From: Chitinophaga pinensis | Lineage (GTDB): Bacteria > Bacteroidota > Bacteroidia > NS11-12g > UBA955 | Assembly (NCBI GenBank): GCA_945877575.1 | Contig: CAMDUE010000003.1 | Location: forward strand, 88,174-152,173 | Direction: 5' to 3' | DNA: 64,000 nt | Part shown: one piece after another, positions 4,703 to 53,118 of the stretch | Numbering within the stretch: the stretch's first letter is position 1 | Layout of the letters: the number at the start of each line of letters is the position of its first letter | Program-made: the position numbers and the translations under genes | The notes under the pieces: model-generated | Told to the model about the DNA's origin: nothing | Database searches by the model: none | Seen by the model: only the letters and a program-made list of their open reading frames with translations

Positions 4703-4723
4703 AATTACGGAAAATCCTTAATT
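4703..4723. promoter_or_regulatory. dyad motif AATTACGGA-AAA-TCCtTAATT, with one mismatch, about 60 nt upstream of the 3372..4640 gene
   Basis: The sequence was read directly. It is a near-identical copy of the perfect dyad at 46112..46132. Confidence 0.45.
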
Positions 4724-38414: not shown

Positions 38415-40978
38415 TATTTAAATGTAAAGAAGGCTCTAAATGGCATTACAACTATATGCACCAAGAATGAAAGAGTTTTATTAATGACTGTTGGATTTTT
38501 ATTATTATCGCTTCCATTTGAGTTATAAGCGAGGTATTTAGAATCATAATTATAGTTGTACGCCCCATAGTCATGAAAATAGTAATTCCCTAATGTGTAA
38601 TAGGCACCACTGTAATTTGAGTAAGCCTTTAAATTACCGTATCCATAATCATAACCATAACCATAACCAGCAATACCACCTTTGACCCCGTTTAACAAGC
38701 AGGCGATGTTGTTTGATTTGCTTAATTTCTTGAATGTCAAAGCAATTTCCTTGACTTTATTCAACTCGGAAACACCAAAGCGAACCACAAAAATACTTAA
38801 ATCAGCAAAACGAGAAACCTCAAGAGAGTCACTCACCAAACCTATTGGTGGACAATCAAAAATGATAATATCAAACTTACTTTTTAAGTCATCCATAACT
38901 TCCAACATTCGGTCTGAAGCTAATAGTTCTAGTGGATTTGGCGGGATAGGACCTGAGGAAATAATAGACAAATTTTCATACCCTACATCTTTAATCACTT
39001 GATCAACAGTTATTTGTGAATTTGAAAGCAAATTACTCAGTCCTATTTCACGTTTGGATATGTTGAAGTTCCTACTAATGCCTGGTTTCCGTAAGTCACC
39101 CTCAATAACTAGCGTTTTCTTACCTGAAATAGCATAAACAGCTCCTAAATTTAAACTGCAAAATGACTTACCCTCTGTTGAAATTGAACTGGTAATGAGT
39201 ATGACTTTCGTATTGATACTTTCTTCAGTGATGAATCCTATGTTGGTTCTAATACTTCTGAATTGTTCTGCAACAATATTTCTTGAATTATCTTGTTCAA
39301 TAACCAACGAAGATTTATCAGATGTTTCAGTGTATATGATGGAACCTAAAATTGGAATATTTAATACTTCACGTAATTCACCTACATTATAAACCTTATT
39401 TCTCAAGATGCTTTTGACCACCAAGATTATCGTTACCAAAAGAAATCCAATAAACGTGAAAAGTATTTGTGTAAGTTTTACCTGAGGAACAACTAGTTTC
39501 TCTCCGGTAGTATTTTCTAAAATCCTGACATTAGATAAGGTTCCAGCCATTTGTATTGCCGACTCCTCTCTTTTTTGGAGAAGATATTGATACAGTGAGT
39601 TTAAAACATTTTGTTGCCTCGTTAAATTTAGCAAAGTCCTTTCCTTTTCAGGAATTGACCTAATTAATTTGTTATAATTAGTATTGGTTCCAGACCGGTC
39701 TTGTAAAATTCCTTCTTTTATTTTATATAGATTTTCCAAGGAATTATCTATTAGATTATCTATGGCCGTTCTAACTAAGTTTAACTCCGATTTAACAACA
39801 CCTAACTGATTGTTTTTATTTCCCACCAAACTATTAAGCTTGTTGTAGTTTAATTTCAATTCATTAAATCGATCAAAATAGGGTTGTATCTGCCTCATAT
39901 TACCCTCGCTCAGACCCGTTAATCCTGGGGCAATTTGATCTGATGCAACACCACGCAAAATGTAACTTTTGATTTGTTTTAAAACAATTATTTCAAATTC
40001 AAATTCCCAAATTTTATTATCACTCAATCTCATTTTATCTAAGAAATACTCAGACTCTTTAGATAATCTTGAAATATCATTAGTACTTTTAAATACTTCA
40101 ATTCTTCTTTCTATTGTGTCTAAATCTCTTCCCAGAAAATCTAGCCTGCGATCAATAAATTCTACAGTAAATTTCGCTTTTTTCCGTTTCTCAGATTGAG
40201 TGTAGCTTTGATAGCTTTCAACCAGAGAATTCAACATTTTTTCCGAATACCGTGGTGAAACTGATTCTGCAAATAAATGAATAATAGAGCTCCTTTTATC
40301 TTTCTCTATCCTGACATTTTCTAAAAATTGCTTTGCCGCTTTCCTATTGTCTAAAATCTCAATCCAATTGTTGTTCTTGAATTGCATTTTTAAAAACTCA
40401 TCAACAATTTTATCTCCTTTTTTGAAATTATAATTTCGCCGAAAAATTAACTTATTTCCATCAATTTCAGTAATAACTTCATATTTAACTATTTTTCCTT
40501 TTACACGAAGTCTTCCATCATTCAACAGTTTGAAAGCAAACTTTGAATTGGATATTTTATCTTTATTGATTACGTCTATATAAAAAGGCAATCCCTCTAA
40601 AGGTATATTGACTTTTTTCATAACACCTTCTGACTTGATAGTAAAAAAATAACCACATTTCTCTACAGCTCCTTTGATTACTTGAAATCCCTTAATCACT
40701 CCAATTTCATCATCAATGAAGGTAGGAGATTTACCAGCCACCTGTTGCAATATTTGATCACTTGAAGTATTGGACTCATCTTTCAACAAAAGTCCAGTTT
40801 CAGTTTCAAATATCGATTGAGTGTAATTGATTTTTAGGTTACCAAGGAATAGAAATAACAGAATAAAGAATGCATATACCGGCCAAAATGGTAAAAAATC
40901 TCTTAAAACCGTATGATATATTTTTAATGCACTTTTATCGTCACTATTCTGAATATTATTTTGTTGTAATTGATCCAC
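38414..40978 (-). CDS. polysaccharide co-polymerase / tyrosine autokinase (Wzc/EpsB-type, PCP-2a)
   Basis: The Wzz-like periplasmic domain lies between two TM segments. The Walker A is ISTEGKSF, the Walker A' DxD motif is LVIEGDLRKP, and the Walker B is IIIFDCPP. The C-terminal tail is tyrosine-rich (GYGYGYDYGYG...YNYNYDSKY). Confidence 0.8.
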   Translation of the reverse strand: MDQLQQNNIQNSDDKSALKIYHTVLRDFLPFWPVYAFFILLFLFLGNLKINYTQSIFETETGLLLKDESNTSSDQILQQVAGKSPTFIDDEIGVIKGFQVIKGAVEKCGYFFTIKSEGVMKKVNIPLEGLPFYIDVINKDKISNSKFAFKLLNDGRLRVKGKIVKYEVITEIDGNKLIFRRNYNFKKGDKIVDEFLKMQFKNNNWIEILDNRKAAKQFLENVRIEKDKRSSIIHLFAESVSPRYSEKMLNSLVESYQSYTQSEKRKKAKFTVEFIDRRLDFLGRDLDTIERRIEVFKSTNDISRLSKESEYFLDKMRLSDNKIWEFEFEIIVLKQIKSYILRGVASDQIAPGLTGLSEGNMRQIQPYFDRFNELKLNYNKLNSLVGNKNNQLGVVKSELNLVRTAIDNLIDNSLENLYKIKEGILQDRSGTNTNYNKLIRSIPEKERTLLNLTRQQNVLNSLYQYLLQKREESAIQMAGTLSNVRILENTTGEKLVVPQVKLTQILFTFIGFLLVTIILVVKSILRNKVYNVGELREVLNIPILGSIIYTETSDKSSLVIEQDNSRNIVAEQFRSIRTNIGFITEESINTKVILITSSISTEGKSFCSLNLGAVYAISGKKTLVIEGDLRKPGISRNFNISKREIGLSNLLSNSQITVDQVIKDVGYENLSIISSGPIPPNPLELLASDRMLEVMDDLKSKFDIIIFDCPPIGLVSDSLEVSRFADLSIFVVRFGVSELNKVKEIALTFKKLSKSNNIACLLNGVKGGIAGYGYGYDYGYGNLKAYSNYSGAYYTLGNYYFHDYGAYNYNYDSKYLAYNSNGSDNNKNPTVINKTLSFLVHIVVMPFRAFFTFK

Positions 40979-42139: not shown

Positions 42140-42919
42140 ATGAAAAATAAGTGGAATGTGATTCTTGCCGCCATCATTCTTGGGGGATGCTCATTGTTTT
42201 CAAATGGCATCAACGTATTTCCTGTCACTACAGATTTAGCCTTCGGAGCTCAAGTTGCCGCTGATATCGATAAAGAAAACAGCAAAAACTTGCTTGACAG
42301 TGCATCTAACAGCGTTATTTACCGTTACTTATATTCCATAAGAGACAGTATCCTTAGAAACAATGAAATTGAGCACGAAAACAAATTCCCTTGGCGAATC
42401 AGAATCATTAAAGACGATCAAACCCTGAACGCCTTTTGCACCCCAGGAGGATACATTTATTTCTACACCGGAATATTGAAATATTTACAATCAGAAGACG
42501 AATTAGCCGGTGTCATGGGGCACGAAATGGCACATGCCGCTAAACGCCACAGCACCGACGCTTTAACCCGTCAATACGGTGTCACCATCTTTACCCAGTT
42601 GTTAATTGACACACAATACCATGATCTGACCCAAATTGCTGCAGGCCTAGCGCTGTTGAAATACGGCCGAAAAGATGAATTGCAATCCGATGAATTTAGT
42701 GTTCGTTGGTTGTATAACACCAGTTATAATCCCACAGGTGCTGCAGGATTTTTTGAGAGAATGAACGCCTCAGGCGGACAAAGAGTGCCTGCATTTTTAA
42801 GTACTCACCCCGATCCAGGCAAAAGAGTAGAAAAAATTCATGCCTTGCATAAAAAATTGGGTGGAAAATCAGGGAATAAATACGAAGAGCGCTACAAACA
42901 GATGATTAAGTACATCTAA
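42140..42919 (+). CDS. M48-family zinc metallopeptidase lipoprotein
   Basis: The lipobox is LGGC. The zinc-binding motif is HEMAHAAKRH (HExxH). Confidence 0.75.
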   Translation: MKNKWNVILAAIILGGCSLFSNGINVFPVTTDLAFGAQVAADIDKENSKNLLDSASNSVIYRYLYSIRDSILRNNEIEHENKFPWRIRIIKDDQTLNAFCTPGGYIYFYTGILKYLQSEDELAGVMGHEMAHAAKRHSTDALTRQYGVTIFTQLLIDTQYHDLTQIAAGLALLKYGRKDELQSDEFSVRWLYNTSYNPTGAAGFFERMNASGGQRVPAFLSTHPDPGKRVEKIHALHKKLGGKSGNKYEERYKQMIKYI

Positions 42920-45225
42920 TATATAGCCAATCCCATCAAATACCGCAAAGCCGTTTTTACCACTCGTCCAGCAAATTCATAGTGCGATTCAGATCCTCCG
43001 GAAACGCAGTACAAGGAGAATCTCGTTAATATCAAGCTTTTTAAAGAATAGCGCGCCGTTTTTACATATTCCAACCAATCTTCATCTAAAAGAGCTGCAT
43101 GTTTCTTTGCGTGTCCCTCGAAATCATCATACGGCAAGTCTAGAAAGCTCAAAAACTCCATGATGTCGCGGTGAGGATAGTCGTTCATGCATAATTCCCA
43201 ATCGTAAATCACGGGCTCACCGTTGTTCAATATCATGATATTCCGTGGATTAAAATCATTGTGAATGACACAAATACGCGAACTAAGTGTAGAGAACTCA
43301 AGTTCCAATTGACTCAATTGTAACGATTCCAAACAACGAAAATCAACTTCGTCAAACTGAATATCTTTGCGAACGGAATCCAAAAATAATGCATTCAATC
43401 GTTGATAGAATTTCATTGCCTTCCAAGGCCGTTGCAGTGGAAACTCATTTGCAATTTCAGCTTTGAATTGAAGATTATGGAAATCATGAATCGCTTCAAT
43501 ACAAGCATCTATATCACCCAAACTCCATTTTTCAGGCTCATTCTCGCAGTTCAGAATCTTTGTTTCTGTTGGATGTATGAACCGTTGAAGAAGCAAATAA
43601 ATCTCTCGCTTTTCATCTTGTTTGATGCCAAATAATTTGGGAAAATACGGATATTCAACCTCGTTAAGCCATTGAGCCATTGAAACTTCTTTCAGATGGC
43701 ATTGATCAAATTCTAGTTTCTTTCTGTCTTCCAAAATGGCAGCAGCTAAGGCAGAATCAATTCCACTGGCTACCAAATGCAACCCTTTATAAACTTCTTC
43801 ACTTGTGGGTCTAGACTTCAATAGCACACGATCAACTTCGTTGATCTTCAACAAATAATAGCCTTGCAACTTCGAAGTGACCCGAGTGGTCAGCTGGGTA
43901 ATGATACCGTTATCAAAATACTCGTGACTTTGCCACTCAATTTTTTCTACTTTAGATTTGTAGGAATCATACAAGCAGGCCCTCAGAAAATCAACATCCA
44001 CTTCCGATTTCAACAACCAATCAACTGGTTTATTTCGTCCTAACTTTTGATGCGCTCGAGCAAATTCTCCACTAACAATGGCTCCAAAAGTAGAAATCTC
44101 TAACCCTAGAGCCGCACCCGCAATGATCCTAGAAAAACGCTGTAATTGACCACGGCCATGACAACCCATCATCTGAAGTGCTTCTTTTTGCTTGGGAAGA
44201 TGAGTACCACCGCCCACGGTTCCAACCACTAAATTGGGAAACGTAATTTCAAAACAAAGTCCTTTTTGCGTCTTTTCAATATTCAAAAACGCCGTTGATG
44301 ATTCATGCAAACACGCTGCATCTTGCCCAGTAGCCAAAAATATCGAAGCCAAGGCATTAGCTACATTGATATTGTAACCCACCATACCTTCTTTTTCAGC
44401 AGCCTCTTTCGAAGGATGATAGAATTTGAAAAATTGATTTGAATCTACCCTTAATACATCTTTCAACACTTCGTCTGAAACCTCTACCGACGCAGATACT
44501 TTGCAACCGCGGCCATGATCAATGTTGTACTGAGATATTTTCTTATCGGCGGCGCCATTTCCTTCAATGACATAATCTAAATGCACATGGGGATACAGTT
44601 CCCCAAACTCTGCCGCAATATGCAACAAAGCATGCCAAGTGCAAGTAGTTGTCATATTTTGACCCGCTGCATCACCCGTTTGGTAATAAAACTTGGTATT
44701 TAAATTAGATCCAAATACATCTGTTTTCATTTCGAGTAGCTTGGCGTGATTGCTGTAAGACTCAGCCACTGATTTAATTTCTTCAAAATGGGAGTTTAAA
44801 TATTCTTCAAGCAATTTCGCATTTTGATTTGAATCCAAAATAAACAGTGGCGCGCGCAACATTCGTTGATAATGAAAGTCAGAATCAAATCCTCCTGAAA
44901 GAGCGATTACGCGAGCTCCGCGATTCATGGAATACACCAATGCACCTTCAAGGGTTGCGGCGGGTAAAAAAACAACTTCAGCTGGAAATTCTGATAATTC
45001 TTTATATGCAATGGGACCAACCAATCCAACGGGAATTTCAACGCTACCAACAAAAGATTCGATGTTGTGATTGATTTCATCAAGGGGAAGCTGATGGCTG
45101 AAAAGTCGAGACGAGTCTAATTGCAAGCCCTTCAAAAAATCTTGCCTCAACAAAACCGCTTGGCTTGTGTTAAACCCTCTTCCTGGTACTTTTGGTGCTC
45201 TATCAAAAAAATGCCCCTCTGACAT
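42916..45225 (-). CDS. fusion protein: HMG-CoA-reductase-like domain (N-terminal ~400 aa) plus an APH/choline-kinase-type phosphotransferase domain (C-terminal ~350 aa)
   Basis: The N-terminal half has HMGR class I-like blocks (...GSVEIPVGLVGP..., DAAGQNM, GTVGGGT). The C-terminal half has the APH catalytic loop IHNDFNPRNIMI and the DWE metal-binding block IYDWELCMND. Confidence 0.65.
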   Translation of the reverse strand: MSEGHFFDRAPKVPGRGFNTSQAVLLRQDFLKGLQLDSSRLFSHQLPLDEINHNIESFVGSVEIPVGLVGPIAYKELSEFPAEVVFLPAATLEGALVYSMNRGARVIALSGGFDSDFHYQRMLRAPLFILDSNQNAKLLEEYLNSHFEEIKSVAESYSNHAKLLEMKTDVFGSNLNTKFYYQTGDAAGQNMTTTCTWHALLHIAAEFGELYPHVHLDYVIEGNGAADKKISQYNIDHGRGCKVSASVEVSDEVLKDVLRVDSNQFFKFYHPSKEAAEKEGMVGYNINVANALASIFLATGQDAACLHESSTAFLNIEKTQKGLCFEITFPNLVVGTVGGGTHLPKQKEALQMMGCHGRGQLQRFSRIIAGAALGLEISTFGAIVSGEFARAHQKLGRNKPVDWLLKSEVDVDFLRACLYDSYKSKVEKIEWQSHEYFDNGIITQLTTRVTSKLQGYYLLKINEVDRVLLKSRPTSEEVYKGLHLVASGIDSALAAAILEDRKKLEFDQCHLKEVSMAQWLNEVEYPYFPKLFGIKQDEKREIYLLLQRFIHPTETKILNCENEPEKWSLGDIDACIEAIHDFHNLQFKAEIANEFPLQRPWKAMKFYQRLNALFLDSVRKDIQFDEVDFRCLESLQLSQLELEFSTLSSRICVIHNDFNPRNIMILNNGEPVIYDWELCMNDYPHRDIMEFLSFLDLPYDDFEGHAKKHAALLDEDWLEYVKTARYSLKSLILTRFSLYCVSGGSESHYEFAGRVVKTALRYLMGLAIY

Positions 45226-45287
45226 ATCAAAGGGGCAAATATATCGTGTTAACAGACAATTGATTTACGATTTATCACAAATCGCAA

Positions 45288-45305
45288 ATTTGAAATTACG
45301 GATTT
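45288..45305. promoter_or_regulatory. half-site of the AATTACGGA dyad motif (as TCCGTAATTTCAAA on the minus strand), about 65 nt upstream of the HMGR-kinase gene start
   Basis: aaatccgtaatt(t)caaa occurs both here, on the minus strand, and at 46121..46136. Confidence 0.35.
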
Positions 45306-45317
45306 ACGCAACTACCC

Positions 45318-46060
45318 TTACCTCGGATGTCCAAGGGCACTTTCTATCAGGAAGCGTCTCATCAAATGGTTGTTGGTTGCGGTACCTGTCCAAGCTCCGA
45401 CACCAAAATAATTTCCACCAGCTGTAAATGAACCAATGTATGAAGTACCAATGAAGGTTCCATCAATTTTAATATCCAGGTTCCATCGCCACCATTTGTG
45501 ACGCTTCCTGCGTACAAATTAGCAGCAATATGCAAAGGCTTGCTCCAATCAATGGTTTGTTGCCAATAGATCTTGCCGTTTTGATTTGCTGAATTGGGTG
45601 TAAGTTGAACGTATCCCGTAGTATTTGAAGCGTTGCCAACAAAAGTAGCTGCTGGAGATAATGATGTGGGATTTCCGAGTGTCCAGTTCCATTCCATTAC
45701 ACCAGGGCTCGTGGTTTGATCTTCAAATCTAACCCATGCAGTTCCGTTCCAATAGTAATACCCAGGAGTAACGTTGTTAGGATAAGACCCTGCAGTGGCA
45801 GTATTGTATACCAACATGGATGTAGTTGGCGAGGTTAACGGTGAAGCAGAAGTCAAAGAAGTAAGTGCCACTCTCGACAACAAAACACCCTTTGTGCTCG
45901 ATGTAACATCCAACTGTGCTGAACTAGAAGGCGTTGTAGTACCAATTCCGACTTGTGCTTTCACAGTGCAAAATGGCGTTGTGATCAAGACAAATAAGGA
46001 GAAGAATCTAAGCGGAGACATAGTATTTAAGTTGATAAATTTACAAACAAAATAGTTCAC
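45318..46060 (-). pseudogene. disrupted paralog of the L-type lectin-like secreted protein family (an internal deletion of about 80 codons with a frameshift)
   Basis: The N-terminal ~190 aa (to NGGDGTW) align with the 55329 and 56260 paralogs. After a frame change the C-terminal homology continues in another frame (...DIKIDGTFIGTSYIGSFTAGGNYFGVGAWTGTATNNHLMRRFLIESALGHPR) and ends at the TAA at 45318..45320. Confidence 0.6.
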
Positions 46061-46111: not shown

Positions 46112-46132
46112 AATTACGGAAAATCCGTAATT
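46112..46132. promoter_or_regulatory. perfect dyad AATTACGGA-AAA-TCCGTAATT, about 65 nt upstream of the UbiA operon start. A candidate operator.
   Basis: The 9 bp inverted-repeat arms were read directly. A related copy lies at 4703..4723 and a half-site at 45288..45305. Confidence 0.5.
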
Positions 46133-46198: not shown

Positions 46199-47146
46199 TT
46201 GAAAACCCAATTCAACCCAATGAACCAAAATCAACCCCTATACTCCCGTTTTTGGATATATCTTACCGAACGATTTCCACTTCACTCACACGGAATTTTA
46301 ATTGCCGCATTTAGTTTTAGCGCCATTGGTTACTCCCGATTGTGCCAACAACTGCCTCATTTTATTGACCTCAAGGCCTTCTTAGTTTGCATCTTCAATA
46401 CCGTTTCCTTGTTTTTTCTTCTTCGTGTATTCGATGAACACAAAGACGCTGAAGACGATGCAAAATTCAGATCGGAATTACCCGTTCCACGCGGACTTAT
46501 TTCGCTCAAAGAACTACGCAACATTGGCTTGACCATATTTGTTTTTCAACTGATCATCAGCGCTGTAACCTTTCCTAAAATGCTTCCGCTTTATGCGGTG
46601 GTTATTGCTTATTTATTGCTCATGGGAAAAGAATTTTTCATGGCTGATTGGCTTAAAAAACACCAATTCTGGTACGTCACCAGTCACATGATCATCATTC
46701 CACTCATTGACATTTATGCCTCTGGTTACGATTGGCATTTAAATCAACGTCCTGCGCCGTTCGGATTGATCTACTTTTTTGGTGTCTCCTTCTTTAATGG
46801 AATTGTGCTAGAGCTCGGCCGGAAAATCCGTGCCCCCCACGATGAAAAACCAGGAGTTCAGACGTATTCCAGCATGTTGGGATTGTATAAATCAGTCTAT
46901 CTATGGATAGCAGTCCTTTTTGCAACTCTAGTTCTCGCTTTGCTTGCCGCAGAATTTGCAAAACTTCCAACGGGCGTTTTTACCGCTCTTTGTGTTTACT
47001 TTGTTTTGACCTTGTTGGCCGCCGTTTGGCACCTAAAAAAGCAAAGTTCTGCTTCTGCTAAAATCATTGAAATTGCCAGCGGAGCTTGGACCATACTCAT
47101 GTATTTAACCCTTGGCGGTATTCTAACCATTACTCACATTTTATGA
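46199..47146 (+). CDS. UbiA-family prenyl/alkyl-transferase (integral membrane)
   Basis: The Asp-rich motif is RVFDEHKDAEDD (NDxxDxxxD-like). There are about 8 TM helices in 315 aa. Confidence 0.7.
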   Translation: MKTQFNPMNQNQPLYSRFWIYLTERFPLHSHGILIAAFSFSAIGYSRLCQQLPHFIDLKAFLVCIFNTVSLFFLLRVFDEHKDAEDDAKFRSELPVPRGLISLKELRNIGLTIFVFQLIISAVTFPKMLPLYAVVIAYLLLMGKEFFMADWLKKHQFWYVTSHMIIIPLIDIYASGYDWHLNQRPAPFGLIYFFGVSFFNGIVLELGRKIRAPHDEKPGVQTYSSMLGLYKSVYLWIAVLFATLVLALLAAEFAKLPTGVFTALCVYFVLTLLAAVWHLKKQSSASAKIIEIASGAWTILMYLTLGGILTITHIL

Positions 47147-49620
47147 GTAAATTCATCGATACAAATAGCCCGTTTGACATCCAGTTTAATCAAATGTATA
47201 CGGGTGGCAAAGGATTTCACCTATTGCAACTTGCTCGAAACGGATTTCAAGTTCCTGAATTCATCATTTATAACGCGACTGAAACATCCATCAAAACACC
47301 CTTGAATCCAGATGAAATTCAACTCATCAAAGAATCTCTGGGCTTCCCTCATAGGGTATCGATAAGATCTTCGGCTCTTGGTGAGGATGGATTTTCACAC
47401 AGTTTTGCTGGACAATTTCTCACTGAGCTCAATGTTTCTTGGGAAACCCTTAACGATAGCATTGAACGCGTTTGGAACTCCTTGAACCGCACCGAAATCG
47501 AAACGTATTGCAAAGAACACGGAATCAATGTCCCAAATAAAATGTCCATCATCATCCAAACCATGCTCCAACCTGACTTTTCAGGCGTTGCATTTGGTGT
47601 AAATCCGGTGAATGGACACCGCAACGAAATGATCATTACGGCAGCCCCGGGACTTGGAGAAGCACTTGTGAGTGGGGCCGTAAATGGCGATACTTTTGTT
47701 GTGAAGGATGACTCAGTTGAATGTATTTCAGGCGAAGCCGCATCCCCAGAAACACTAAGCACTGAACAGGTAGTTGCCGTGGGCGAACAACTCAAACGGC
47801 TCAAAAAACTATACGGAAAACCCCAAGACATTGAATTTTCTTGGGTCAAAAATGAGTTGTTTTTACTTCAAACAAGACCAGTAACTTCCTTAGATAAATT
47901 GGCTGATACCGGGGCAGAGATGATTCTCTGGGACAATTCAAACATCATTGAATCTTACCCCGGCGTAACCACCCCTTTGACGTTTAGTTTCATCATCAAA
48001 ATGTATGAATCCGTCTATCTGCAACTTTGCAGATTGTTGGGAGTAAGCGAAAAAGACTTACGTGAAAATGCCGCCGTATTTTCCAATATGCTCGGCCTAA
48101 TTGAAGGAAGGGTTTACTACAATTTATTGTCGTGGTATAAAGCGTTGGCGCTGCTTCCTGGATATCATTTGAACGCAGAGTTCATGGAAAAAATGATGGG
48201 GGTTAAAGAACGATTTGAGTTGAAAAATCGGCCTCAAAGAAGTAAGCTAATTGAGCGCTTAAGAGTTTTGGTCATGGTAAAATCCATGATATCCAATCTC
48301 AGGGCATTGCCTAAAATGCGAATCAACTTTCAAAGTGATTTCCAAAAAGAATTAGACCGGTTCAATGCCATAGCTTTGGATAAAAAGAACGTTGTTGAAC
48401 TGATGGAACTCATGATTGATTTCCAAAGCACGCTTCTTAAAAAATGGAAAGCACCCTTGGTGAACGATTTTTACGCCATGATTTACTTCGGCTTACTTCA
48501 AAAAACTGCCGAAAAATATGGTTTACCTCCAGGAATACACAACGATCTTTTATGCGGGGCTAGCGATATTATTTCTACCGAACCCATAAAGCGCATGAAG
48601 GAAATCAGTTCAGCCATTGTACAATTTCACACCCTTGAAAATGCATTTCTCATTGAGTCGCCAGAACAAATTCTGAGGTTGATCAATGAACCTAATTATG
48701 AACCGGTGCAAAAACTCTTCGATACCTATTTGAATCAATTTGGCGACCGAACTGTGGGAGAGTTAAAATTAGAAACCATCACCTATAAACAAGAACCTAC
48801 CGCTTTGATTCAATTGATCCAATCGTACATAAGACAAGGCTTTGGGCATTCTGAAAATGTGAATGAACGAGTGGATCTCAAAATGCGTAAAAACGCAGAA
48901 GAAAAAGTAGGTCACATTTTGAAAGGTAAGCCTTTCAAAAAATGGTTCTTCCACTATTTACTGAAGCGCACTCGCATATTGGTCAGTGCCAGAGAAAACC
49001 TCCGATTTGAACGAACCCGAGGATTTGGAAAAGTACGCGAAATATTTTTGGCTATAGGCAATCAATTCTTCAGTGAAGGCATTTTGGAGCATCCCAGAGA
49101 TATTTTTTACCTTACCCAAGAGGAAATCTTCGACTTCATCAAAGGCACATCGGTAACCCCAGAAATTTCAGAATTGGTATCCTTCCGAAAGGAAAAATTT
49201 GCAAAATACGAAACCACTACCACATCTGAACGCATCAGAACTTACGGAGCAGTTTACCACGGGAACTCATTCTCACAAGAAAAATCAACATCCCTTGACG
49301 GAGAAGATCTGAAAGGCATTGGTTGTTGCCCAGGAATCGTAAAAGCAAAGGTGCGTATAGTTTTAGACCCCAAAGAGGTGAGCGATTTAAACGGTGACAT
49401 ATTGGTAACCGCCTCAACTGACCCCGGCTGGGTAACACTATTCCCCACGGCTTCAGCCATCATTGTAGAACGAGGTTCACTGCTCTCGCACAGTGCCATC
49501 GTATCTCGCGAATTAGGCAAACCCTGCATTGTAGGTGTGACCCATCTGTTATCAAAAATCAAAACCGGCGACTGGGTAGAGATGGATGGTTCAACAGGAC
49601 AAATCAAAATAATCAAATAA
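47143..49620 (+). CDS. PEP-synthase-family dikinase with rifampin-phosphotransferase-like architecture (ATP-grasp N-domain, central domain, C-terminal swivelling phospho-His domain; no PEP/pyruvate TIM barrel)
   Basis: The N-terminal PPDK_N block is YTGGKGFHLLQL. The C-terminal mobile domain is ...GDILVTASTDPGWV...SLLSHSAIVSRELGKPCIVG (catalytic His), and the protein ends straight after it. I moved the start to MSKFIDTN (ATGA overlap with the UbiA stop). Confidence 0.7.
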   Translation: MSKFIDTNSPFDIQFNQMYTGGKGFHLLQLARNGFQVPEFIIYNATETSIKTPLNPDEIQLIKESLGFPHRVSIRSSALGEDGFSHSFAGQFLTELNVSWETLNDSIERVWNSLNRTEIETYCKEHGINVPNKMSIIIQTMLQPDFSGVAFGVNPVNGHRNEMIITAAPGLGEALVSGAVNGDTFVVKDDSVECISGEAASPETLSTEQVVAVGEQLKRLKKLYGKPQDIEFSWVKNELFLLQTRPVTSLDKLADTGAEMILWDNSNIIESYPGVTTPLTFSFIIKMYESVYLQLCRLLGVSEKDLRENAAVFSNMLGLIEGRVYYNLLSWYKALALLPGYHLNAEFMEKMMGVKERFELKNRPQRSKLIERLRVLVMVKSMISNLRALPKMRINFQSDFQKELDRFNAIALDKKNVVELMELMIDFQSTLLKKWKAPLVNDFYAMIYFGLLQKTAEKYGLPPGIHNDLLCGASDIISTEPIKRMKEISSAIVQFHTLENAFLIESPEQILRLINEPNYEPVQKLFDTYLNQFGDRTVGELKLETITYKQEPTALIQLIQSYIRQGFGHSENVNERVDLKMRKNAEEKVGHILKGKPFKKWFFHYLLKRTRILVSARENLRFERTRGFGKVREIFLAIGNQFFSEGILEHPRDIFYLTQEEIFDFIKGTSVTPEISELVSFRKEKFAKYETTTTSERIRTYGAVYHGNSFSQEKSTSLDGEDLKGIGCCPGIVKAKVRIVLDPKEVSDLNGDILVTASTDPGWVTLFPTASAIIVERGSLLSHSAIVSRELGKPCIVGVTHLLSKIKTGDWVEMDGSTGQIKIIK

Positions 49621-49625
49621 ATTGA

Positions 49626-51539
49626 ATGGCGGAGCAATCTGAACTCAATATATCTCAAAAAGCCTCGTTTGATTTCATCCGATATGCCACGGTTTGGGAA
49701 GACCCCGTGGTACTTCTTCAGGCGCTCAACATCGAAAAAAACGACCAGGTTTTGAGCATCGCTTCTGCCGGAGATAATTGCTTCAGCTTATTGATGGCAG
49801 ACCCAAAATTGATTGTTGCAGCCGACATCAATCCCGTTCAATTGCATCTCACGGAGCTAAAAATCAAAGCCATTCAGGAGCTTTCTTACCAGGAAGTTCT
49901 TGCTTTTTTGGGATATTCATCTGAGTCAAATCGAGCGGAATTATTCAATAAAATCGAGCCCCACCTTTCCAAAGAAGCTGCTCATTATTTTAGAAATTCC
50001 CTTCCCACTTGGGAAAAAACAGGCATCATACATCAAGGAAAATTCGAAAAATACTTCCAAATTTTCTCCAGAAAAGTACTGCCCCTGATTCACAGTTACA
50101 AAACCATTGAACAGTTGCTTACACCCAAATCGGAACATGAGCAACGCCAATTTTTCCTCCGACATTGGAACACCTGGCGTTGGCGATGGTTGTTCAAATT
50201 ATTCTTCAGTCGTACCGTCATGGGTTGGTTGGGCCGCGATCCAGAATTCCTAAAACAGGTAGAAATTCCAGTTTCAGAATTCATCTTAAGGCAAGCAGAA
50301 ATACACCTCAGCTCCAGTCGGGCCGCACAAAATCCGTTTTTAAGATACAACCTAACAGGCAGTTTTGGAACCCTTTTACCGCACTACCTTCAACCCGAAA
50401 ACTTCGAATTCATCAAAGACAGAATTCACCGAATTTCACTCTTTCACGGCTTCGCCGAGGATGCAATAGCTCAATACGGACATTTTCACGCCATGAACCT
50501 GAGCAACATCTTCGAGTACATGAATGTTCAAGAATTTGAGCAAACAGCTCAAAAATTAGTAAGTGGCCTATTCCCTGGCGGACGATTAGCCTATTGGAAT
50601 CTCATGGTAAAACGAAGGTGCTCAGAGGTAGTTGCTGACTGCACAGAACAGACCAATCTCATGTCCGAGCTTCGGCTCAAAGACGATGGCTACTTTTACA
50701 GCACCATTGTAACGGATGTTTGTCTTAAATCTTTTGACTTTGGAATTTATAGGCTCAATTCAGAAACACTTGCAGTAGGTTACCCATCGAAAGAGGGAAG
50801 CAATTTAAATTTAACCGAGCAACTCAAAGCCCTTACACTATGGGCCAAAAATGAGGGATTCAAACACCTAATAGGCCCAATGAATGGCAGCACTTGGGAA
50901 AATTATCGTTTAAAAACCTCTTCCCATCGCATTTTTTTGGGGGATCTCTCGTATCAGCCACAAGTTGTAGAAAGCTTTGAAAGTGCAGGATTTAAAACCA
51001 TTGAGAGATATGTGAGTGCCCTGATGCATGAAATTCCAGGTAGTATTTCCAGATTGGATGAGCGAAAGAGCCAACTAGAGAAACAAGGAATCAAATTCCG
51101 ACACTTAAACATGGAGTCTTGGGAACAAGAACTTCAAAAAATCCACGAGCTCAGCCTCGTGGCCTTCCAAAATAACCCTTTCTACACCCCCATTCTTTGG
51201 AAAGACTTCTTGTTGAAGTACAACGAAATCAAACAATTCATTGACCCGCAATGGGTCCTTTTAGCAGAATTGGAACAAAATTTGCAGGGGTTTGTCTTTG
51301 CTTACTTAGACCTTGAATATAAATGCATCATCATGAAAACTGTTGCTCGAAAACCTGACTTTAGACTTGGTGGATTGGGATTGGTGATGACCGATATTTT
51401 ACAACAAAAAGCCAAAAAAGAAGGCATTTTTCAAGTCGTTCACTCATTCATGCATCAAGACGCTGCATCTCTTAGATGCTCTGAATCTTTAGAAGCTGAA
51501 ATTATTTCTGAATACCATCTGTACGGAATAGAACTTTAA
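49626..51539 (+). CDS. fusion protein: DUF3419 (BtaA-like SAM 3-amino-3-carboxypropyl transferase) N-domain plus a GNAT-like acyltransferase C-domain
   Basis: The N-terminal ~400 aa carry a ...YATVWEDPVVLL... block typical of BtaA/DUF3419. The C-terminal ~230 aa carry a GNAT motif-A-like FRLGGLGLVM (R-x-x-G-x-G). Confidence 0.5.
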   Translation: MAEQSELNISQKASFDFIRYATVWEDPVVLLQALNIEKNDQVLSIASAGDNCFSLLMADPKLIVAADINPVQLHLTELKIKAIQELSYQEVLAFLGYSSESNRAELFNKIEPHLSKEAAHYFRNSLPTWEKTGIIHQGKFEKYFQIFSRKVLPLIHSYKTIEQLLTPKSEHEQRQFFLRHWNTWRWRWLFKLFFSRTVMGWLGRDPEFLKQVEIPVSEFILRQAEIHLSSSRAAQNPFLRYNLTGSFGTLLPHYLQPENFEFIKDRIHRISLFHGFAEDAIAQYGHFHAMNLSNIFEYMNVQEFEQTAQKLVSGLFPGGRLAYWNLMVKRRCSEVVADCTEQTNLMSELRLKDDGYFYSTIVTDVCLKSFDFGIYRLNSETLAVGYPSKEGSNLNLTEQLKALTLWAKNEGFKHLIGPMNGSTWENYRLKTSSHRIFLGDLSYQPQVVESFESAGFKTIERYVSALMHEIPGSISRLDERKSQLEKQGIKFRHLNMESWEQELQKIHELSLVAFQNNPFYTPILWKDFLLKYNEIKQFIDPQWVLLAELEQNLQGFVFAYLDLEYKCIIMKTVARKPDFRLGGLGLVMTDILQQKAKKEGIFQVVHSFMHQDAASLRCSESLEAEIISEYHLYGIEL

Positions 51540-51540
51540 A

Positions 51541-53118
51541 ATGTCTAACATCATTCATATCGCAAAAACCCTGAAAAATGGAAACATCATGGAGCATTTC
51601 CATGCTGCCGCGATCATGAATTCAAATCGCCTTGCCATTGCCGATCAGCATTCGCAAGTGACTTTTGATGAATTAAGACATAAAATTGAAAACGCTCATT
51701 CATTATTTATGGAGCGTGGCCTTAAATCCGGCGACCGTGTTTTGGTCTTTGTGCCCATGAGTATTGATTTATACATCAGCGTTTTAGCTTTATTCAAAAT
51801 GGGCTGTACCGCCGTTTTCATTGATGAGTGGGCCAAAATAGACCGTTTAAAAAAGTCATGCCAAATAGCAGATTGTAAAGGATTTATAGGCATTCCCGCT
51901 GCATCTTCTTTGGGATTCTTAATCCAGGAAATTAGAAAAATCCCCGTCCGCATGACCACACGAGAAATTCGACATGCAAAGAAAAGTCATTACCATGATT
52001 TGGCAACTATTGATGGTTCAAACGACACCGCGCTCATCACTTTCACTACGGGCAGCACAGGCACACCCAAAGCGGTAAAACGCAGCCATGAAATTCTCCA
52101 TCAACAGTTTTTGTCCCTCCAAAACACCATACAAACCCGCGATGACACTGTAGATATGCCGGTGTTACCCATTGTTTTATTGATTAATTTAGGGTTAGGG
52201 GTCAGCAGCGTAATCGTAAAATGGAGCAGCAAAAAGCCTTACGCACTGAAGGCAAAAAAGATCATCAAAACCATACAAAAATTTCGGGTCAATCGCATCA
52301 TTGCTTCCCCTTATTTCATTGATCAACTTTGCATTAAGAGCCTTACCGAAAACAATTCTCCAAAATTAAGTTCGGTGCGCGAAGTCTTCAGCGGAGGAGC
52401 GCCTGTTTTCCCATCTGAAGCCAAATTATGGCTCACTGCATTTCCAGACTCTAAAGTTGAAATTGTATACGGAAGCACCGAGGCCGAACCTATTTCAAGC
52501 ATCAATGCACGGAAACTCATGCAAACCACCGACTCCACTTTTGAGGATGGGCTTTTTGTGGGAAGAGTAGAATCTTGTACACAAGTTAAAATTCTAAATC
52601 TAAAAACTCAGGAAACTCTCAAACCCATAGAAATCGGGGAGATTGCGGTTGCAGGAAATCATGTTGTAAAAGAGTATTTTGGTCCTGATTCTGCTGCTCA
52701 AATGGCTGAATCAAAGCTTCTCATTGATGGACATTTATTCCACAAAACGGGAGATTCCGGCTACATTGACCACCAAGGAAACCTTCATTTATTGGGCCGC
52801 TGCCAACAAATCATTGAGTGGCAGGGACAACCGTTGTACCCATTTCTGATGGAATATCAACTGCGCCACATTCCTGGCGTAATTATGGGTACCGTCTTAA
52901 AAATCAACGATAAACTCGTTTACTTCTTAGAGTTAAAACGCTGTAAATCCTTCCAGCATCTAGCATACCCAAAACTGGGTTGCTTCTCGCCCATTACCGA
53001 GGATTTGCGTTCCTTGGGACTGCCTGACGGCGACATTCGACTGGTCAAGATACCAAGAGATCCCAGACATTTCAGCAAGATTGATTATAGAGTTTTGCAA
53101 AAAATGCAAAAAATGTAA
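51541..53118 (+). CDS. AMP-forming acyl/aryl-CoA (or carrier-protein) ligase
   Basis: The AMP-binding motif is TFTTGSTGTPKAV, with ...YGSTE... The start is 2 nt after the upstream stop. Confidence 0.75.
   Translation: MSNIIHIAKTLKNGNIMEHFHAAAIMNSNRLAIADQHSQVTFDELRHKIENAHSLFMERGLKSGDRVLVFVPMSIDLYISVLALFKMGCTAVFIDEWAKIDRLKKSCQIADCKGFIGIPAASSLGFLIQEIRKIPVRMTTREIRHAKKSHYHDLATIDGSNDTALITFTTGSTGTPKAVKRSHEILHQQFLSLQNTIQTRDDTVDMPVLPIVLLINLGLGVSSVIVKWSSKKPYALKAKKIIKTIQKFRVNRIIASPYFIDQLCIKSLTENNSPKLSSVREVFSGGAPVFPSEAKLWLTAFPDSKVEIVYGSTEAEPISSINARKLMQTTDSTFEDGLFVGRVESCTQVKILNLKTQETLKPIEIGEIAVAGNHVVKEYFGPDSAAQMAESKLLIDGHLFHKTGDSGYIDHQGNLHLLGRCQQIIEWQGQPLYPFLMEYQLRHIPGVIMGTVLKINDKLVYFLELKRCKSFQHLAYPKLGCFSPITEDLRSLGLPDGDIRLVKIPRDPRHFSKIDYRVLQKMQKM

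Follow-up and report, generated by a model that had tools for sequence, protein, structure and literature searches.

A Conserved HMG-CoA Reductase-Like/Kinase Fusion Protein of Bacteroidota and Its Probable Link to a Membrane-Lipid Pathway

A 769-aa protein encoded in the window (the whole 64-kb stretch of DNA that was analysed) unites an HMG-CoA reductase (HMGR)-like reductase with a kinase of the APH/choline-kinase fold, and it represents a real two-domain enzyme of an uncharacterised family, not an artefact. Based on the observed domain identities, intact catalytic residues, conservation of the fusion, remodelled substrate pocket and gene linkage, we propose, with a probability of roughly 0.6, that this reductase-kinase yields a phosphorylated alcohol for a specialised membrane-lipid pathway, its substrate probably being a compound other than HMG-CoA. 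No published description of an HMGR-APH fusion was found in the literature searched.

Architecture, catalytic residues and conservation of the fusion protein

The fusion gene and its functional elements, all on the minus strand, are as follows.

42916..45225, minus: fusion gene (HMGR-like reductase plus APH/choline-kinase-fold kinase), 769 aa plus stop; ORF list, translation and 120 full-length fused homolog clusters
44035..45147, minus: HMGR-like reductase domain, aa 27-397; PF00368, PDB 6hr7 (E 4.7e-65), invariant columns, pocket mapping and Foldseek
45058-45060, minus: reductase catalytic residue E56
44542-44544, minus: reductase catalytic residue K228
44320-44322, minus: reductase catalytic residue D302
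44050-44052, minus: reductase catalytic residue H392
44563-44565, minus: E221, family-specific, in place of human Ser684
44653-44673, minus: DAAGQNM, aa 185-191
44203-44223, minus: GTVGGGT, aa 335-341
42919..44028, minus: kinase domain, aa 400-769, APH/choline-kinase (eukaryotic-like kinase) fold; PF01636, AF2, Foldseek and invariant columns
43240-43263, minus: catalytic loop HNDFNPRN, aa 655-662 (H655, N, D657, N662)
43195-43203, minus: Mg-binding D675-W-E, aa 675-677, DFG-equivalent

A single ORF starting with ATG contains DAAGQNM, GTVGGGT, HNDFNPRN and DWE, the four motifs on which an earlier note on this DNA had based its identification of both domains. In Pfam searches, HMG-CoA_red matched aa 27-397 (E 5e-91, 306 bits) over the full model length (PF00368 positions 5-368 of 368, comprising the N, L and S domains), and APH (PF01636) matched aa 512-717 (E 1.5e-12, 48 bits; cutoff 23), both scores being far beyond chance. 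The Choline_kinase profile remained sub-threshold (20.7 bits vs a cutoff of 29). Profile searches and structure prediction, two of the checks suggested in that note, recovered both domains with confident models. The AlphaFold model of the full-length protein reached a pLDDT of 87.9, with an interdomain geometry that is uncertain (pTM 0.62), so that channelling between the two halves is unsupported.

When searched with Foldseek, the N-terminal half retrieved class I HMGRs (6hr7 and 1dqa, E 1e-22 to 4e-26) with a target-normalised TM of 0.77. Residues E56, K228, D302 and H392 correspond to human Glu559, Lys691, Asp767 and His866 and are invariant in 71 family members, as are the equivalents of human N755, D690, K692 and R590. 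The cofactor-motif residues D185, G188, N190 and G338-T341 of the NAD(P)H-binding motifs (DAMGxN and GTVGGGT) are likewise invariant in the family, and the contacts to the 3-OH and 5-O of HMG, provided by the equivalents of R590, D690, K691 and N755, are kept.

The site for the distal carboxylate of HMG, on the other hand, is remodelled. In canonical enzymes, Ser684 is one of the conserved residues in polar contact with the HMG moiety, and Lys735 forms a salt bridge to its terminal carboxylate (PMC9500038). All 120 canonical HMGRs compared have Ser at position 684, whereas 119 of the 120 fusion proteins have Glu and one has Asp; among 76 distant fused representatives, the 51 that could be scored (the other 25 fall outside the motif pattern) comprise 43 Glu, 8 Asp and no Ser. 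Lys735 is lost through conversion of the NxxKNL motif to FxPS, its column being variable (H/E/K/L) and followed by Pro, and His752 and Leu853 are replaced by Asn and Thr, respectively. The HMGR equivalog model TIGR00533 scores 245.9 bits vs a cutoff of 441.8. Given this remodelling, the substrate is probably not HMG-CoA; the acidic pocket residue suggests a loss of HMG binding, for which another basic residue could compensate.

The kinase half was modelled with high confidence (AF2 pLDDT 91.7, pTM 0.91), and its structural neighbours in Foldseek include NahK, choline kinases (including alpha), LicA, homoserine kinase II and APH(2'')/(9) (E 5e-8 to 1e-6, TM 0.45-0.6, probability 1.00) at only 10-16% identity. 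By sequence, the best PDB matches, LicA (4r77) among them, reach only E about 1e-3. H655, D657, N662 and D675 are invariant in the 71 family members, and E677 is invariant as well. K470 is present in at least 90% of the 71-member alignment and, together with E477, is invariant in a 14-sequence kinase alignment; these residues map to a predicted beta3 strand and a predicted alphaC helix and were assigned as the beta3 Lys/alphaC Glu pair by their place in the AF2 model, not by superposition. The kinase half could be assigned to no characterised subfamily, such as choline kinase, APH(3') or homoserine kinase II. Pfam and NCBIfam scans of the fusion protein gave no match to the GHMP family, which agrees with the earlier view that the kinase fold is unrelated to that of mevalonate kinase.

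The two domains are fused in 120/120 of the best homolog clusters (42-95% identity, coverage at least 98%), and at least 579 reference (species) genomes, mostly of Bacteroidota, carry a relative. Culturable carriers include Kordia jejudonensis, Flavobacterium gilvum and a Psychroserpens sp. The distribution of the family is patchy and accessory, with F. gilvum the only representative within Flavobacterium among the matches listed. The junction G396-R-N-K-P400...W403 is invariant across the family alignment, and the sole apparent split form that was traced to its contig (P0121) proved to be a contig-edge fragment. In a search with the kinase domain alone, at least 76 of the 149 matches listed were longer than 700 aa, and in all seven long matches scanned an HMGR domain precedes the kinase. 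Since the fusion is conserved and both catalytic sets, compared with human HMGR in the case of the reductase, are intact and invariant across the family, neither always-split orthologs nor missing catalytic residues, the two objections anticipated in the earlier note, were found. Reduction followed by phosphorylation is the natural reading of the two halves, whose coupling we infer from sequence.

Gene neighbourhood in the window and in relatives

The upstream region of the fusion gene and the linked operon comprise the following features.

45226..45361, minus: upstream intergenic region of the fusion gene
45293-45302, plus: exact dyad half-site AAATTACGGA
45243..45236, minus: putative Bacteroidetes-type -7 box TATATTTG, a promoter assignment from sequence
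45237..45212: terminator-like hairpin with the ATG of the fusion gene in its loop
45362..46060, minus: lectin-like 232-aa ORF with a weak Lectin_L-type match
46112..46132, unstranded: perfect dyad AATTACGGA-aaa-TCCGTAATT, candidate operator upstream of the UbiA operon
46199..47146, plus: UbiA-family membrane prenyltransferase, first gene of the linked operon; PF01040, 45 bits; NCBIfam PRK05951/PRK13592 sub-threshold
47086..49620, plus: PEP-synthase/rifampin-phosphotransferase-like (PEPS-like) protein, PPDK_N ATP-grasp plus phosphohistidine swivel; Pfam and NCBIfam
49626..51539, plus: DUF3419 protein (BtaA-like, SAM-dependent), domain aa 13-326 (PF11899, 240 bits), its C-terminal region weakly matching GNAT
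51541..53118, plus: AMP-binding acyl-CoA ligase family protein; PF00501; NCBIfam PRK09274, 303 bits, sub-threshold

The fusion gene had been described as divergent from the UbiA operon; the orientation is correct, but the two are not adjacent in the window, being separated by the lectin-like ORF on the strand of the fusion gene. This ORF has no counterpart at loci L002, L003 and L031 and is probably outside the system; at L003, the fusion gene directly adjoins the UbiA operon in divergent orientation. The half-site of the shared dyad was located upstream of the fusion gene as reported, and a copy of the dyad with one mismatch lies at 4704-4722. Dyad and half-site are conserved only in L001, the 95%-identical relative.

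UbiA genes accompany fusion homologs at L001-L003, L031 and L081, and the acyl-CoA ligase gene, whose product may supply the CoA thioester, is kept beside the fusion in L001-L003 and L031. Homologs of the PEPS-like protein also contain an Rph_4th domain. The GNAT signal in the DUF3419 protein of the window is sub-threshold (E 0.018), and its C-terminal region has a putative counterpart in a separate L031 protein, c226, with a GNAT match at E 3.6e-5.

Additional fusions tie the gene to the UbiA-PEPS-DUF3419-ligase operon of the window. DUF3419 is fused to HMGR-APH in P0249, and at L081 a single DUF3419-HMGR-APH polypeptide is followed by UbiA and the PEPS-like gene. P0128 carries a thymidylate-kinase-like (TMK-like) P-loop kinase at its N terminus, as does P0138, judging by length and layout, and a TMK-like-HMGR-APH gene at L082 shares an operon with PEPS-like, NTP_transf_5, TMK-like, ACP and desaturase genes. 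At L031, UbiA, PEPS, DUF3419, GNAT, ligase, fusion and CarS all lie on one strand. The arrangements at L081 and L031 strongly support the prediction that the fusion gene is functionally linked to the UbiA operon.

Across the family, the conserved partners of the fusion are membrane-lipid enzymes. A CarS-like gene adjoins it, typically directly downstream, in 50 of the 70 loci with enough sequence. Among the 46 fully flanked loci, CarS-like genes were found in 32, PEPS-like genes in 26 and CDP-OH transferase genes in 22, with at least one of the latter two present in 41. Overall, PEPS-like proteins occur in 45/80 loci and PF01066 (CDP-alcohol phosphatidyltransferase) proteins in 38/80, the CarS-like and PEPS-like proteins being the two most widespread partners. 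The PEPS-like gene lies beside UbiA or the c9 membrane-protein gene in 19 of its 26 fully flanked loci, and also at L081. PF01864 was matched by 17/20 CarS-like members, whose sole NCBIfam match was CDP-archaeol synthase, and the CDP-OH transferase comes closest to PgsA, AIPS and PIPS. Further recurrent neighbours include ICMT/PEMT, GtrA, a PlsC-like acyltransferase, desaturases, a methyltransferase and UbiA, and several loci (e.g., L076 and L077) contain the fusion with no recognisable partner nearby. None of the 20 annotated neighbour families represents a mevalonate-pathway enzyme (phosphomevalonate kinase, decarboxylase, IDI or HMG-CoA synthase), and neither GGGPS nor G1P dehydrogenase is among the annotated families at these loci. 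The CarS-like protein and CDP-alcohol phosphatidyltransferase, as the main conserved partners, had escaped the earlier note; no gene for either occurs within the 64-kb window.

Proposed function and alternative explanations

In the most likely mechanism, the N-terminal domain would use NAD(P)H to reduce a CoA thioester by four electrons, yielding a primary alcohol. Its substrate would be an acyl-CoA akin to HMG-CoA, probably 3-hydroxylated, whose distal group is neutral, a hydroxyl or cationic. The C-terminal APH/choline-kinase-fold domain would then use ATP to phosphorylate the new alcohol. The direction of the reaction, the class of substrate and the order of the pathway are what we infer here from domain and gene context. 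The phospho-alcohol would then enter a membrane-lipid pathway, which in most genomes may involve the CarS-like CTP transferase and the PgsA/PIP-synthase-like CDP-alcohol phosphatidyltransferase, resembling Kennedy-type or archaeal CDP-activation. In the clade of the window, the partners would be the UbiA-family transferase, the PEPS-like phosphotransferase, the BtaA-like DUF3419/GNAT protein and the acyl-CoA ligase.

As a preferred specific model, the product could be a small phosphorylated backbone or head-group unit serving as a surrogate of glycerol phosphate; UbiA would alkylate this unit, or the PlsC-like acyltransferase would acylate it, before CDP activation and the addition of a head group. 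Because the CarS-like and CDP-alcohol transferase genes are absent from the window, this order has been extrapolated from relatives sharing only 41-50% identity, and the model leaves the role of the PEPS-like enzyme unexplained. In its fullest form, which we put forward tentatively, the HMGR fold would have been recruited to a non-isoprenoid task: together with the fused kinase, it would turn a 3-hydroxyacyl-CoA-like thioester into a small phosphorylated diol or amino-alcohol not known before, to serve either as backbone in place of glycerol phosphate or as a new polar head group in undescribed membrane lipids of Bacteroidota and some Acidobacteriota. Archaeal-type UbiA/DGGGPS-like, CarS-like and CDP-alcohol phosphatidyltransferase enzymes would build these lipids. 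If so, these lipids would add a new bacterial branch to the discussion of the 'lipid divide', and the fusion would be, to our knowledge, the first member of the HMGR family whose physiological substrate is neither HMG-CoA nor mevalonate.

A different, rather unlikely explanation is that the reductase acts on a long-chain (e.g., 3-hydroxy) fatty or isoprenoid acyl-CoA, and that the resulting lipid-alcohol phosphate is either made into a CDP-alkanol by the CarS-like enzyme or phosphorylated further by the PEPS-like or TMK-like kinases to give UbiA a diphosphate donor. As is known for the family, all characterised CarS/CdsA/dolichol-kinase relatives use lipid substrates (review PMC9385802). The position of the CarS-like gene directly after the fusion, the ACP, desaturase and acyltransferase genes of the operons, the TMK-like fusions, which would fit a route from alcohol through monophosphate to diphosphate, and the frequent placement of PEPS-like genes beside UbiA or c9 all point in the same direction. 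However, polar residues kept in the pocket, together with an added charged Glu, would form an odd lining for an aliphatic chain, and most structural relatives of the kinase act on small polar substrates. Furthermore, UbiA-type donors normally require an allylic diphosphate, which a saturated acyl chain, once reduced, does not give.

It is still more doubtful that the protein combines a true HMG-CoA reductase with a non-orthologous mevalonate kinase, with mevalonate 5-phosphate leading to isoprenoid precursors for the neighbouring UbiA. The full-length HMGR fold, the four catalytic residues, both NAD(P)H motifs, the retained 3-OH and 5-O contacts and the UbiA prenyltransferase in the linked operon are consistent with this explanation, and HMG-CoA should be available, given that many Flavobacteriia use the mevalonate pathway. 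Against it stand the replacement of Ser684 by Glu or Asp in every scorable fused protein, the lost Lys735 salt bridge, the low TIGR00533 score, the lack of the four mevalonate-pathway enzymes among annotated neighbour families, the patchy accessory distribution, and partners (a cytidylyltransferase and a CDP-alcohol transferase) that play no part in isoprenoid precursor synthesis.

Finally, an assembly or frameshift artefact is effectively refuted by the 120 fused clusters, the many independent assemblies and the invariant junction, and an unrelated resistance-type or regulatory kinase that is not metabolically coupled is scarcely credible: many APH-family domains act on antibiotics, and the NCBI annotation of the homologs is simply 'phosphotransferase', but the long kinase matches with HMGR domains and the consistently lipid-related operon context argue otherwise.

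Comparison with known systems

The reductase half resembles class I HMG-CoA reductases (EC 1.1.1.34; Methanothermococcus thermolithotrophicus 6hr7 and human 1dqa) in its fold across the whole catalytic portion, the catalytic Glu/Lys/Asp/His, the cis-loop DKK, and the DAxGxNM and GTVGGGT cofactor motifs. Unlike these enzymes, the fusion family has Glu at 684, has lost Lys735, falls below the equivalog cutoff, carries a kinase fused to the C-terminal flap, and is surrounded by lipid and head-group enzymes instead of the mevalonate pathway. The functional analogy to HMGR plus GHMP mevalonate kinase (the first two dedicated mevalonate steps), as drawn in the earlier note, is probably only formal: both lead from a thioester through a primary alcohol to a phosphate ester, but the fusion has an APH/choline-kinase fold, a non-HMG pocket and no downstream mevalonate enzymes found nearby. 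The protein at 47086-49620 shares ATP-grasp, central (Rph_4th in homologs) and phosphohistidine swivel domains with rifampin phosphotransferase/PigC-type enzymes, while scoring below every equivalog cutoff.

Kennedy/Lic-type pathways (choline kinase LicA, cytidylyltransferase, phosphotransferase) offer a parallel in that most relatives encode a CTP transferase and a CDP-alcohol phosphotransferase after the choline-kinase-fold kinase. The alcohol would, however, be made in situ by the fused reductase instead of being imported, and the cytidylyltransferase is of the membrane CarS type, not the soluble LicC/CCT type, with the partner genes absent from the window. As for the late steps of archaeal phospholipid synthesis (DGGGPS/UbiA, CarS and CDP-alcohol phosphatidyltransferases), the matches are all sub-threshold and distant, GGGPS and G1P dehydrogenase were not seen at the loci, and the reductase-kinase has no archaeal counterpart, yet all three enzyme families recur around the fusion, with UbiA present in the window itself.

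A conserved reductase-kinase fusion and its distribution

The fusion gene and the sequence motifs of its product are arranged as follows.

42916-45225, minus strand: fusion gene, a single ATG-initiated open reading frame (ORF) of 769 codons
Amino acids 185-191 and 335-341: reductase motifs DAAGQNM and GTVGGGT
Amino acids 655-662 and 675-677: kinase motifs HNDFNPRN and DWE

In Pfam searches, a full-length HMG-CoA_red domain (PF00368) was assigned to amino acids 27-397 (E 5e-91, 306 bits, model positions 5-368 of 368) and an APH domain to amino acids 512-717 (E 1.5e-12), with an additional sub-threshold match to Choline_kinase. The top solved relative by sequence was 6hr7, the class I HMG-CoA reductase (HMGR) of Methanothermococcus thermolithotrophicus (E 4.7e-65). 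Confident AlphaFold2 models were obtained for the full-length protein (pLDDT 87.9, pTM 0.62) and for residues 400-769 alone (pLDDT 91.7, pTM 0.91). Using Foldseek, the N-terminal half was matched to archaeal and human class I HMGRs (E 1e-22 to 4e-26), and the C-terminal half to small-molecule kinases with the APH/choline-kinase fold (NahK, human choline kinase alpha, LicA, homoserine kinase II, APH(2'') and APH(9)), the latter group at a probability of 1.00, yet with an identity of only 10-16% and TM scores of 0.45-0.6. The ORF, its four motifs, the Pfam domains, the models and the Foldseek matches all agree with the proposal of the earlier note that one 769-aa ORF carries an HMGR-like and an APH domain, and both folds were recovered by domain HMMs as well as by structure prediction.

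A search of 5.8 billion protein clusters yielded 1645 matches to the fusion. Both Pfam domains were present in all of the best 120 clusters, at a query coverage of at least 98%, lengths of 751-829 aa and identities of 42-95%, and the source names of these homologs were either "phosphotransferase" or "hydroxymethylglutaryl-CoA reductase (NADPH)". When one genome per species was scanned, at least 579 genomes were found to encode a relative. The carriers are mainly Bacteroidota, namely Flavobacteriales (such as Kordia, Bizionia, Winogradskyella and Psychroserpens), Cytophagales, Chitinophagales and Saprospiraceae, and a few are labelled Acidobacteriota or Kapaibacterium. Four metagenome-assembled genome (MAG) records (L001, L003, L031 and L075) carry a Bacteroidota-type locus under the titles "uncultured Rhizobium sp.", "Bifidobacterium sp." or "Alphaproteobacteria", and these titles appear unreliable. 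The domain junction, G396-R-N-K-P400...W403, is invariant family-wide. The uniformly fused best clusters, the invariant junction and the number of carrier genomes rule out a frameshift or assembly artefact, the concern raised in the earlier note, and establish the fusion as conserved.

With the kinase half alone as query, only 294 matches at E <= 1e-3 were detected among 1.84 billion representatives; at least 76 of the 149 listed exceed 700 aa, and the HMGR domain lies N-terminal to the kinase in all seven long matches scanned. More distant APH proteins of 350-400 aa, with 23-28% identity to the kinase half, also exist and probably belong to a different subfamily. The reading frame of the best apparently standalone kinase (P0121, 39% identity) runs from the first base of a 3.8-kb contig, with genes for a CarS-like cytidylyltransferase and a PEP-synthase/rifampin-phosphotransferase-like (PEPS-like) enzyme downstream, which identifies P0121 as a truncated fusion. 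Since the long kinase-half matches scanned are fused and P0121 is a contig-edge truncation, it is also ruled out that orthologs are always split.

Catalytic residues and the substrate pocket

In a 71-sequence alignment, residues E56, K228, D302 and H392 of the fusion, corresponding to human E559, K691, D767 and H866, were invariant, as were the equivalents of human N755, D690, K692 and R590 and, on the kinase side, H655, D657, N662, D675 and E677. Residues K470 and E477, located on the beta3 strand and the alphaC helix of the predicted structure, were both invariant in a 14-sequence kinase alignment, with K470 nearly invariant among the 71 sequences. The four catalytic residues sought by comparison with human HMGR are thus all retained, and with invariant catalytic sets in both halves, the reductase and the kinase each appear catalytically competent.

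The pocket surrounding the distal end of the substrate is altered. In human HMGR, the HMG moiety is contacted by conserved polar residues that include Ser684, and its terminal carboxylate forms a salt bridge with Lys735 (PMC9500038). Ser occupies position 684 in all 120 canonical archaeal HMGRs compared, as it does in the human and Arabidopsis enzymes, whereas the 120 fusion-family proteins compared have Glu (119) or Asp (1); in the fusion of the window the residue is E221. Of a further 76 fused representatives, which are more distant, 51 were scorable at this position (43 Glu, 8 Asp and no Ser), the other 25 falling outside the motif pattern. In addition, F-x-P-S occupies the place of the canonical N-x-x-K735-N-L, without a conserved basic residue, and His752 and Leu853 are replaced by an invariant Asn and an invariant Thr, respectively. 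According to the numbering in PMC9500038 and a realignment, human K735 sits in the "NINKNL" helix and the GRGK lysine is K704; the human sequence used for numbering reproduced the published positions of D767, N755, H752 and K735. Against TIGR00533, the HMGR equivalog model, the fusion scores 246 bits vs a cutoff of 442. Judged from the aligned residues, thioester-reduction chemistry and the 3-hydroxyl contacts seem to be retained, and recognition of the HMG carboxylate appears lost or charge-reversed, so that HMG-CoA is probably not the substrate of the reductase.

Directly upstream of the fusion gene in one Acidobacteriota MAG lies a gene (L044:7982-9538, plus strand) for a standalone HMGR of 518 aa, which contains an HMG-CoA_red_N domain and scores 427 bits against PF00368. 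This HMGR also carries Glu at the position of human Ser684, indicating that the acidic-pocket variant is not confined to kinase-fused proteins.

Gene neighbourhood and regulatory sequences

All ORFs of 80 related loci were clustered de novo and representatives were annotated. The most common neighbor is a membrane protein of about 171 aa adjoining the fusion, typically directly downstream (57 of 80 loci); this CarS-like protein occurs in 50 of the 70 loci with at least 1.5 kb of downstream sequence. Of 20 members, 17 matched PF01864 (best E 8e-9) and 10 matched CTP_transf_1; the sole NCBIfam match was CDP-archaeol synthase, and in PDB the one noteworthy match, to 5guf, was marginal (E 0.079, 16 bits). 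The PEPS-like enzyme is found in 45 of the 80 loci and a CDP-alcohol phosphatidyltransferase in 38, the nearest relatives of the latter, all below cutoff, being ClsA, PgsA, archaetidylinositol-phosphate synthase and PIP synthase. At least one of these two genes lies within 8 kb in 41 of 46 fully flanked loci. Further partners include ICMT/PEMT-type methyltransferases, GtrA, fatty-acid-desaturase-family proteins, a PlsC-like acyltransferase, a SAM methyltransferase and UbiA-family proteins. No mevalonate-pathway gene (GHMP kinase, decarboxylase, IDI or HMG-CoA synthase) was detected by Pfam among 20 annotated neighbor families, which were taken from the larger neighbor gene clusters. The operon types that recur are the following.

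Operon types at the fusion loci
Fusion, CarS, CDP-alcohol transferase, GtrA
Fusion, CarS, CDP-alcohol transferase, ICMT; PEPS-UbiA nearby
(Desaturase), fusion, CarS, PEPS, c9, methyltransferase, acyltransferase, desaturase
Fusion facing PEPS, NTP_transf_5 and two thymidylate-kinase-like genes
Fusion divergent from UbiA, PEPS-like, DUF3419(+GNAT-like), AMP-ligase (the window and L001-L003)

The c9 family consists of a 246-aa membrane protein without annotation, encoded beside the PEPS-like gene in many operons; its only resemblance to UbiA was a weak match at the first Asp-rich motif (hhalign probability 10%, E 0.003), and PDB gave no match. Operons of a CarS-less type (L082:2096-12441, L027, L035, L059, L060, L062, L064, L067 and L080) carry an NTP_transf_5 nucleotidyltransferase, two thymidylate-kinase-like P-loop kinases and DUF454, with an acyl carrier protein in L082, which suggests another route to activate the same phospho-alcohol.

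A functional link between the fusion and the UbiA operon of the window (46199-53118, plus strand) is strongly supported by Rosetta-stone fusions. In one (P0249/L081), DUF3419, HMGR-like and APH domains share a 1109-aa polypeptide, with UbiA and a PEPS/Rph-like gene following it. In another (P0128/L082), a thymidylate-kinase-like domain is fused ahead of HMGR-APH, within an operon that also encodes a PEPS-like enzyme, NTP_transf_5, a second such kinase, DUF454, an acyl carrier protein, a desaturase and an MFS transporter. In L031, genes for UbiA, PEPS, DUF3419, a GNAT-like protein, the ligase, the fusion and CarS all lie on one strand. Within the 64-kb window, no homolog of the CarS-like protein, CDP-alcohol transferase, ICMT, GtrA, desaturase or acyltransferase was found. 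The divergent orientation described in the earlier note holds, but the two transcription units are separated by a 232-aa lectin-like ORF (45362-46060), which is present in L001. Because it is absent from L002, L003 and L031, this ORF is read here as an insertion outside the system. It is one of three paralogous ORFs (45362-46060, minus strand; 55329-56213 and 56260-57186, plus strand), two of which show weak L-type-lectin matches.

The candidate regulatory elements of the window are listed below.

46112-46132: perfect dyad AATTACGGA-aaa-TCCGTAATT, upstream of UbiA
45293-45302: exact half-site AAATTACGGA, within the 136-bp region upstream of the fusion gene
4704-4722: one-mismatch dyad copy ATTACGGAAAATCCTTAAT, 64 nt upstream of the gene for a 422-aa protein (3372-4640, minus strand)
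45243..45236, minus strand: Bacteroidetes-type -7 box TATATTTG, immediately 5' of the hairpin
45237..45212, minus strand: terminator-like hairpin, 11-bp stem with 6 GC pairs, then 7 T; fusion ATG in the loop

The window contains no exact copy of the 10-mer apart from those in the dyad and in the half-site upstream of the fusion gene, the latter as previously reported. Among relatives, an exact dyad copy occurs only in the 95%-identical locus L001, and neither L002 nor L003 yielded a comparable one. The 422-aa protein, which has no Pfam or NCBIfam match and whose hydrophobic N-terminus reads as signal-peptide-like, may be encoded in the same regulon. The -7 box is a putative promoter element of the fusion gene, and the hairpin could block read-through from the 232-aa ORF while the fusion's own transcripts begin inside the stem.

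Several other features of the window were recorded. The DUF3419 (BtaA-like) protein (49626-51539, plus strand) has 637 aa, of which the C-terminal 300 or so resemble GNAT proteins only below threshold (E 0.018). In L031, a GNAT-like protein, c226 (Acetyltransf_1, E 3.6e-5), is encoded by a gene of its own after that for DUF3419; the C-terminal part of the window protein would correspond to c226, which would make the window protein a DUF3419-GNAT-like fusion. A START-domain (lipid-binding) protein is encoded about 5 kb downstream of the UbiA operon (58126-58791, plus strand); such proteins are uncommon in bacteria. Co-oriented genes spanning about 33 kb (7653-40978, minus strand) have a G+C content of 0.29-0.34 vs 0.38-0.45 in the flanks, and those annotated at the 38-41 kb end encode an ABC exporter (36744-38414) and a Wzc-type tyrosine autokinase (38414-40978). 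This region looks like a polysaccharide biosynthesis/export locus and was possibly acquired horizontally. T9SS C-terminal sorting domains, which are typical of Bacteroidota, occur at 4726-6264 and 58788-60926.

A proposed lipid pathway and its relation to known systems

The best-supported interpretation has three parts: the N-terminal domain would reduce a CoA thioester to a primary alcohol using NAD(P)H, the fused kinase would phosphorylate this alcohol, and the phospho-alcohol would enter a membrane-lipid pathway via CDP-activated intermediates (CarS-like protein plus CDP-alcohol transferase), UbiA-type transfer, or both. In the clade of the window, the AMP-ligase may plausibly supply the thioester. 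In the preferred model, the product would be a small hydroxylated alcohol-phosphate serving as a glycerol-phosphate surrogate or head-group unit, to which a hydrophobic chain would be attached by UbiA, by analogy with DGGGPS, or by the PlsC-like acyltransferase; the resulting lipid phosphate would be activated by the CarS-like enzyme, a head group added by the PgsA/PIPS-like transferase, and the product tailored by methyltransferases and desaturases. In such a scheme, most of the conserved partners would carry out reactions canonical for their families, but the PEPS-like and DUF3419 proteins would have no defined step. Alternatively, a long-chain or isoprenoid acyl substrate might be converted to a lipid alcohol phosphate or diphosphate. 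A literal route from HMG-CoA to mevalonate-5-phosphate is opposed by the altered distal-end contacts, the TIGR00533 score and the absence of mevalonate-pathway genes from the annotated neighbor families; of the analogy to HMGR plus mevalonate kinase in the earlier note, the HMGR fold, the chemistry and the unrelated kinase fold stand, but the distal pocket and equivalog score depart from it.

To our knowledge, HMG-CoA reductase has been regarded as a single-substrate enzyme family. A large conserved kinase-welded clade with intact chemistry and a charge-reversed distal pocket would represent reuse of the HMGR fold for another thioester, and would provide enzymologists seeking that thioester with a defined target. 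The gene context, comprising CarS-like, CDP-alcohol phosphatidyltransferase, UbiA, rifampin-phosphotransferase-like, BtaA-like, acyltransferase and desaturase genes, suggests that a pathway for a lipid or head group has gone unrecognised in Bacteroidota that are abundant in the sea and in fresh water, among them Kordia, Winogradskyella, Psychroserpens and Bizionia, and in Saprospiraceae and Chitinophagales. Many unidentified polar lipids are routinely reported for these taxa, and the pathway would bear on them as well as on the reach of archaeal-type lipid enzymes in bacteria. The names under which these proteins are now annotated, "HMG-CoA reductase (NADPH)" or "phosphotransferase", are misleading, and surveys of metagenomes could wrongly infer a mevalonate pathway or antibiotic resistance from them. 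Biochemists who work on isoprenoids or lipids would have good reason to take an interest in the fusion.

Full-text literature searches turned up no account of the fusion or of its operons, and the Lipocone paper mentions only canonical HMGR and GHMP kinase. Compared with known systems, the fusion has the fold and chemistry of HMG-CoA reductase but lacks two features that define a functional HMG-CoA reductase, namely the distal-end contacts and a sufficient equivalog score. Its kinase is a member of the APH/choline-kinase superfamily, yet falls within no characterised subfamily, and is not a GHMP kinase. The pathway logic is similar to that of the Kennedy/Lic route (kinase, cytidylyltransferase and phosphotransferase) and of the late steps of archaeal phospholipid synthesis (UbiA/DGGGPS, CarS and CDP-alcohol transferases; PMC9385802), although all of the matches are distant.
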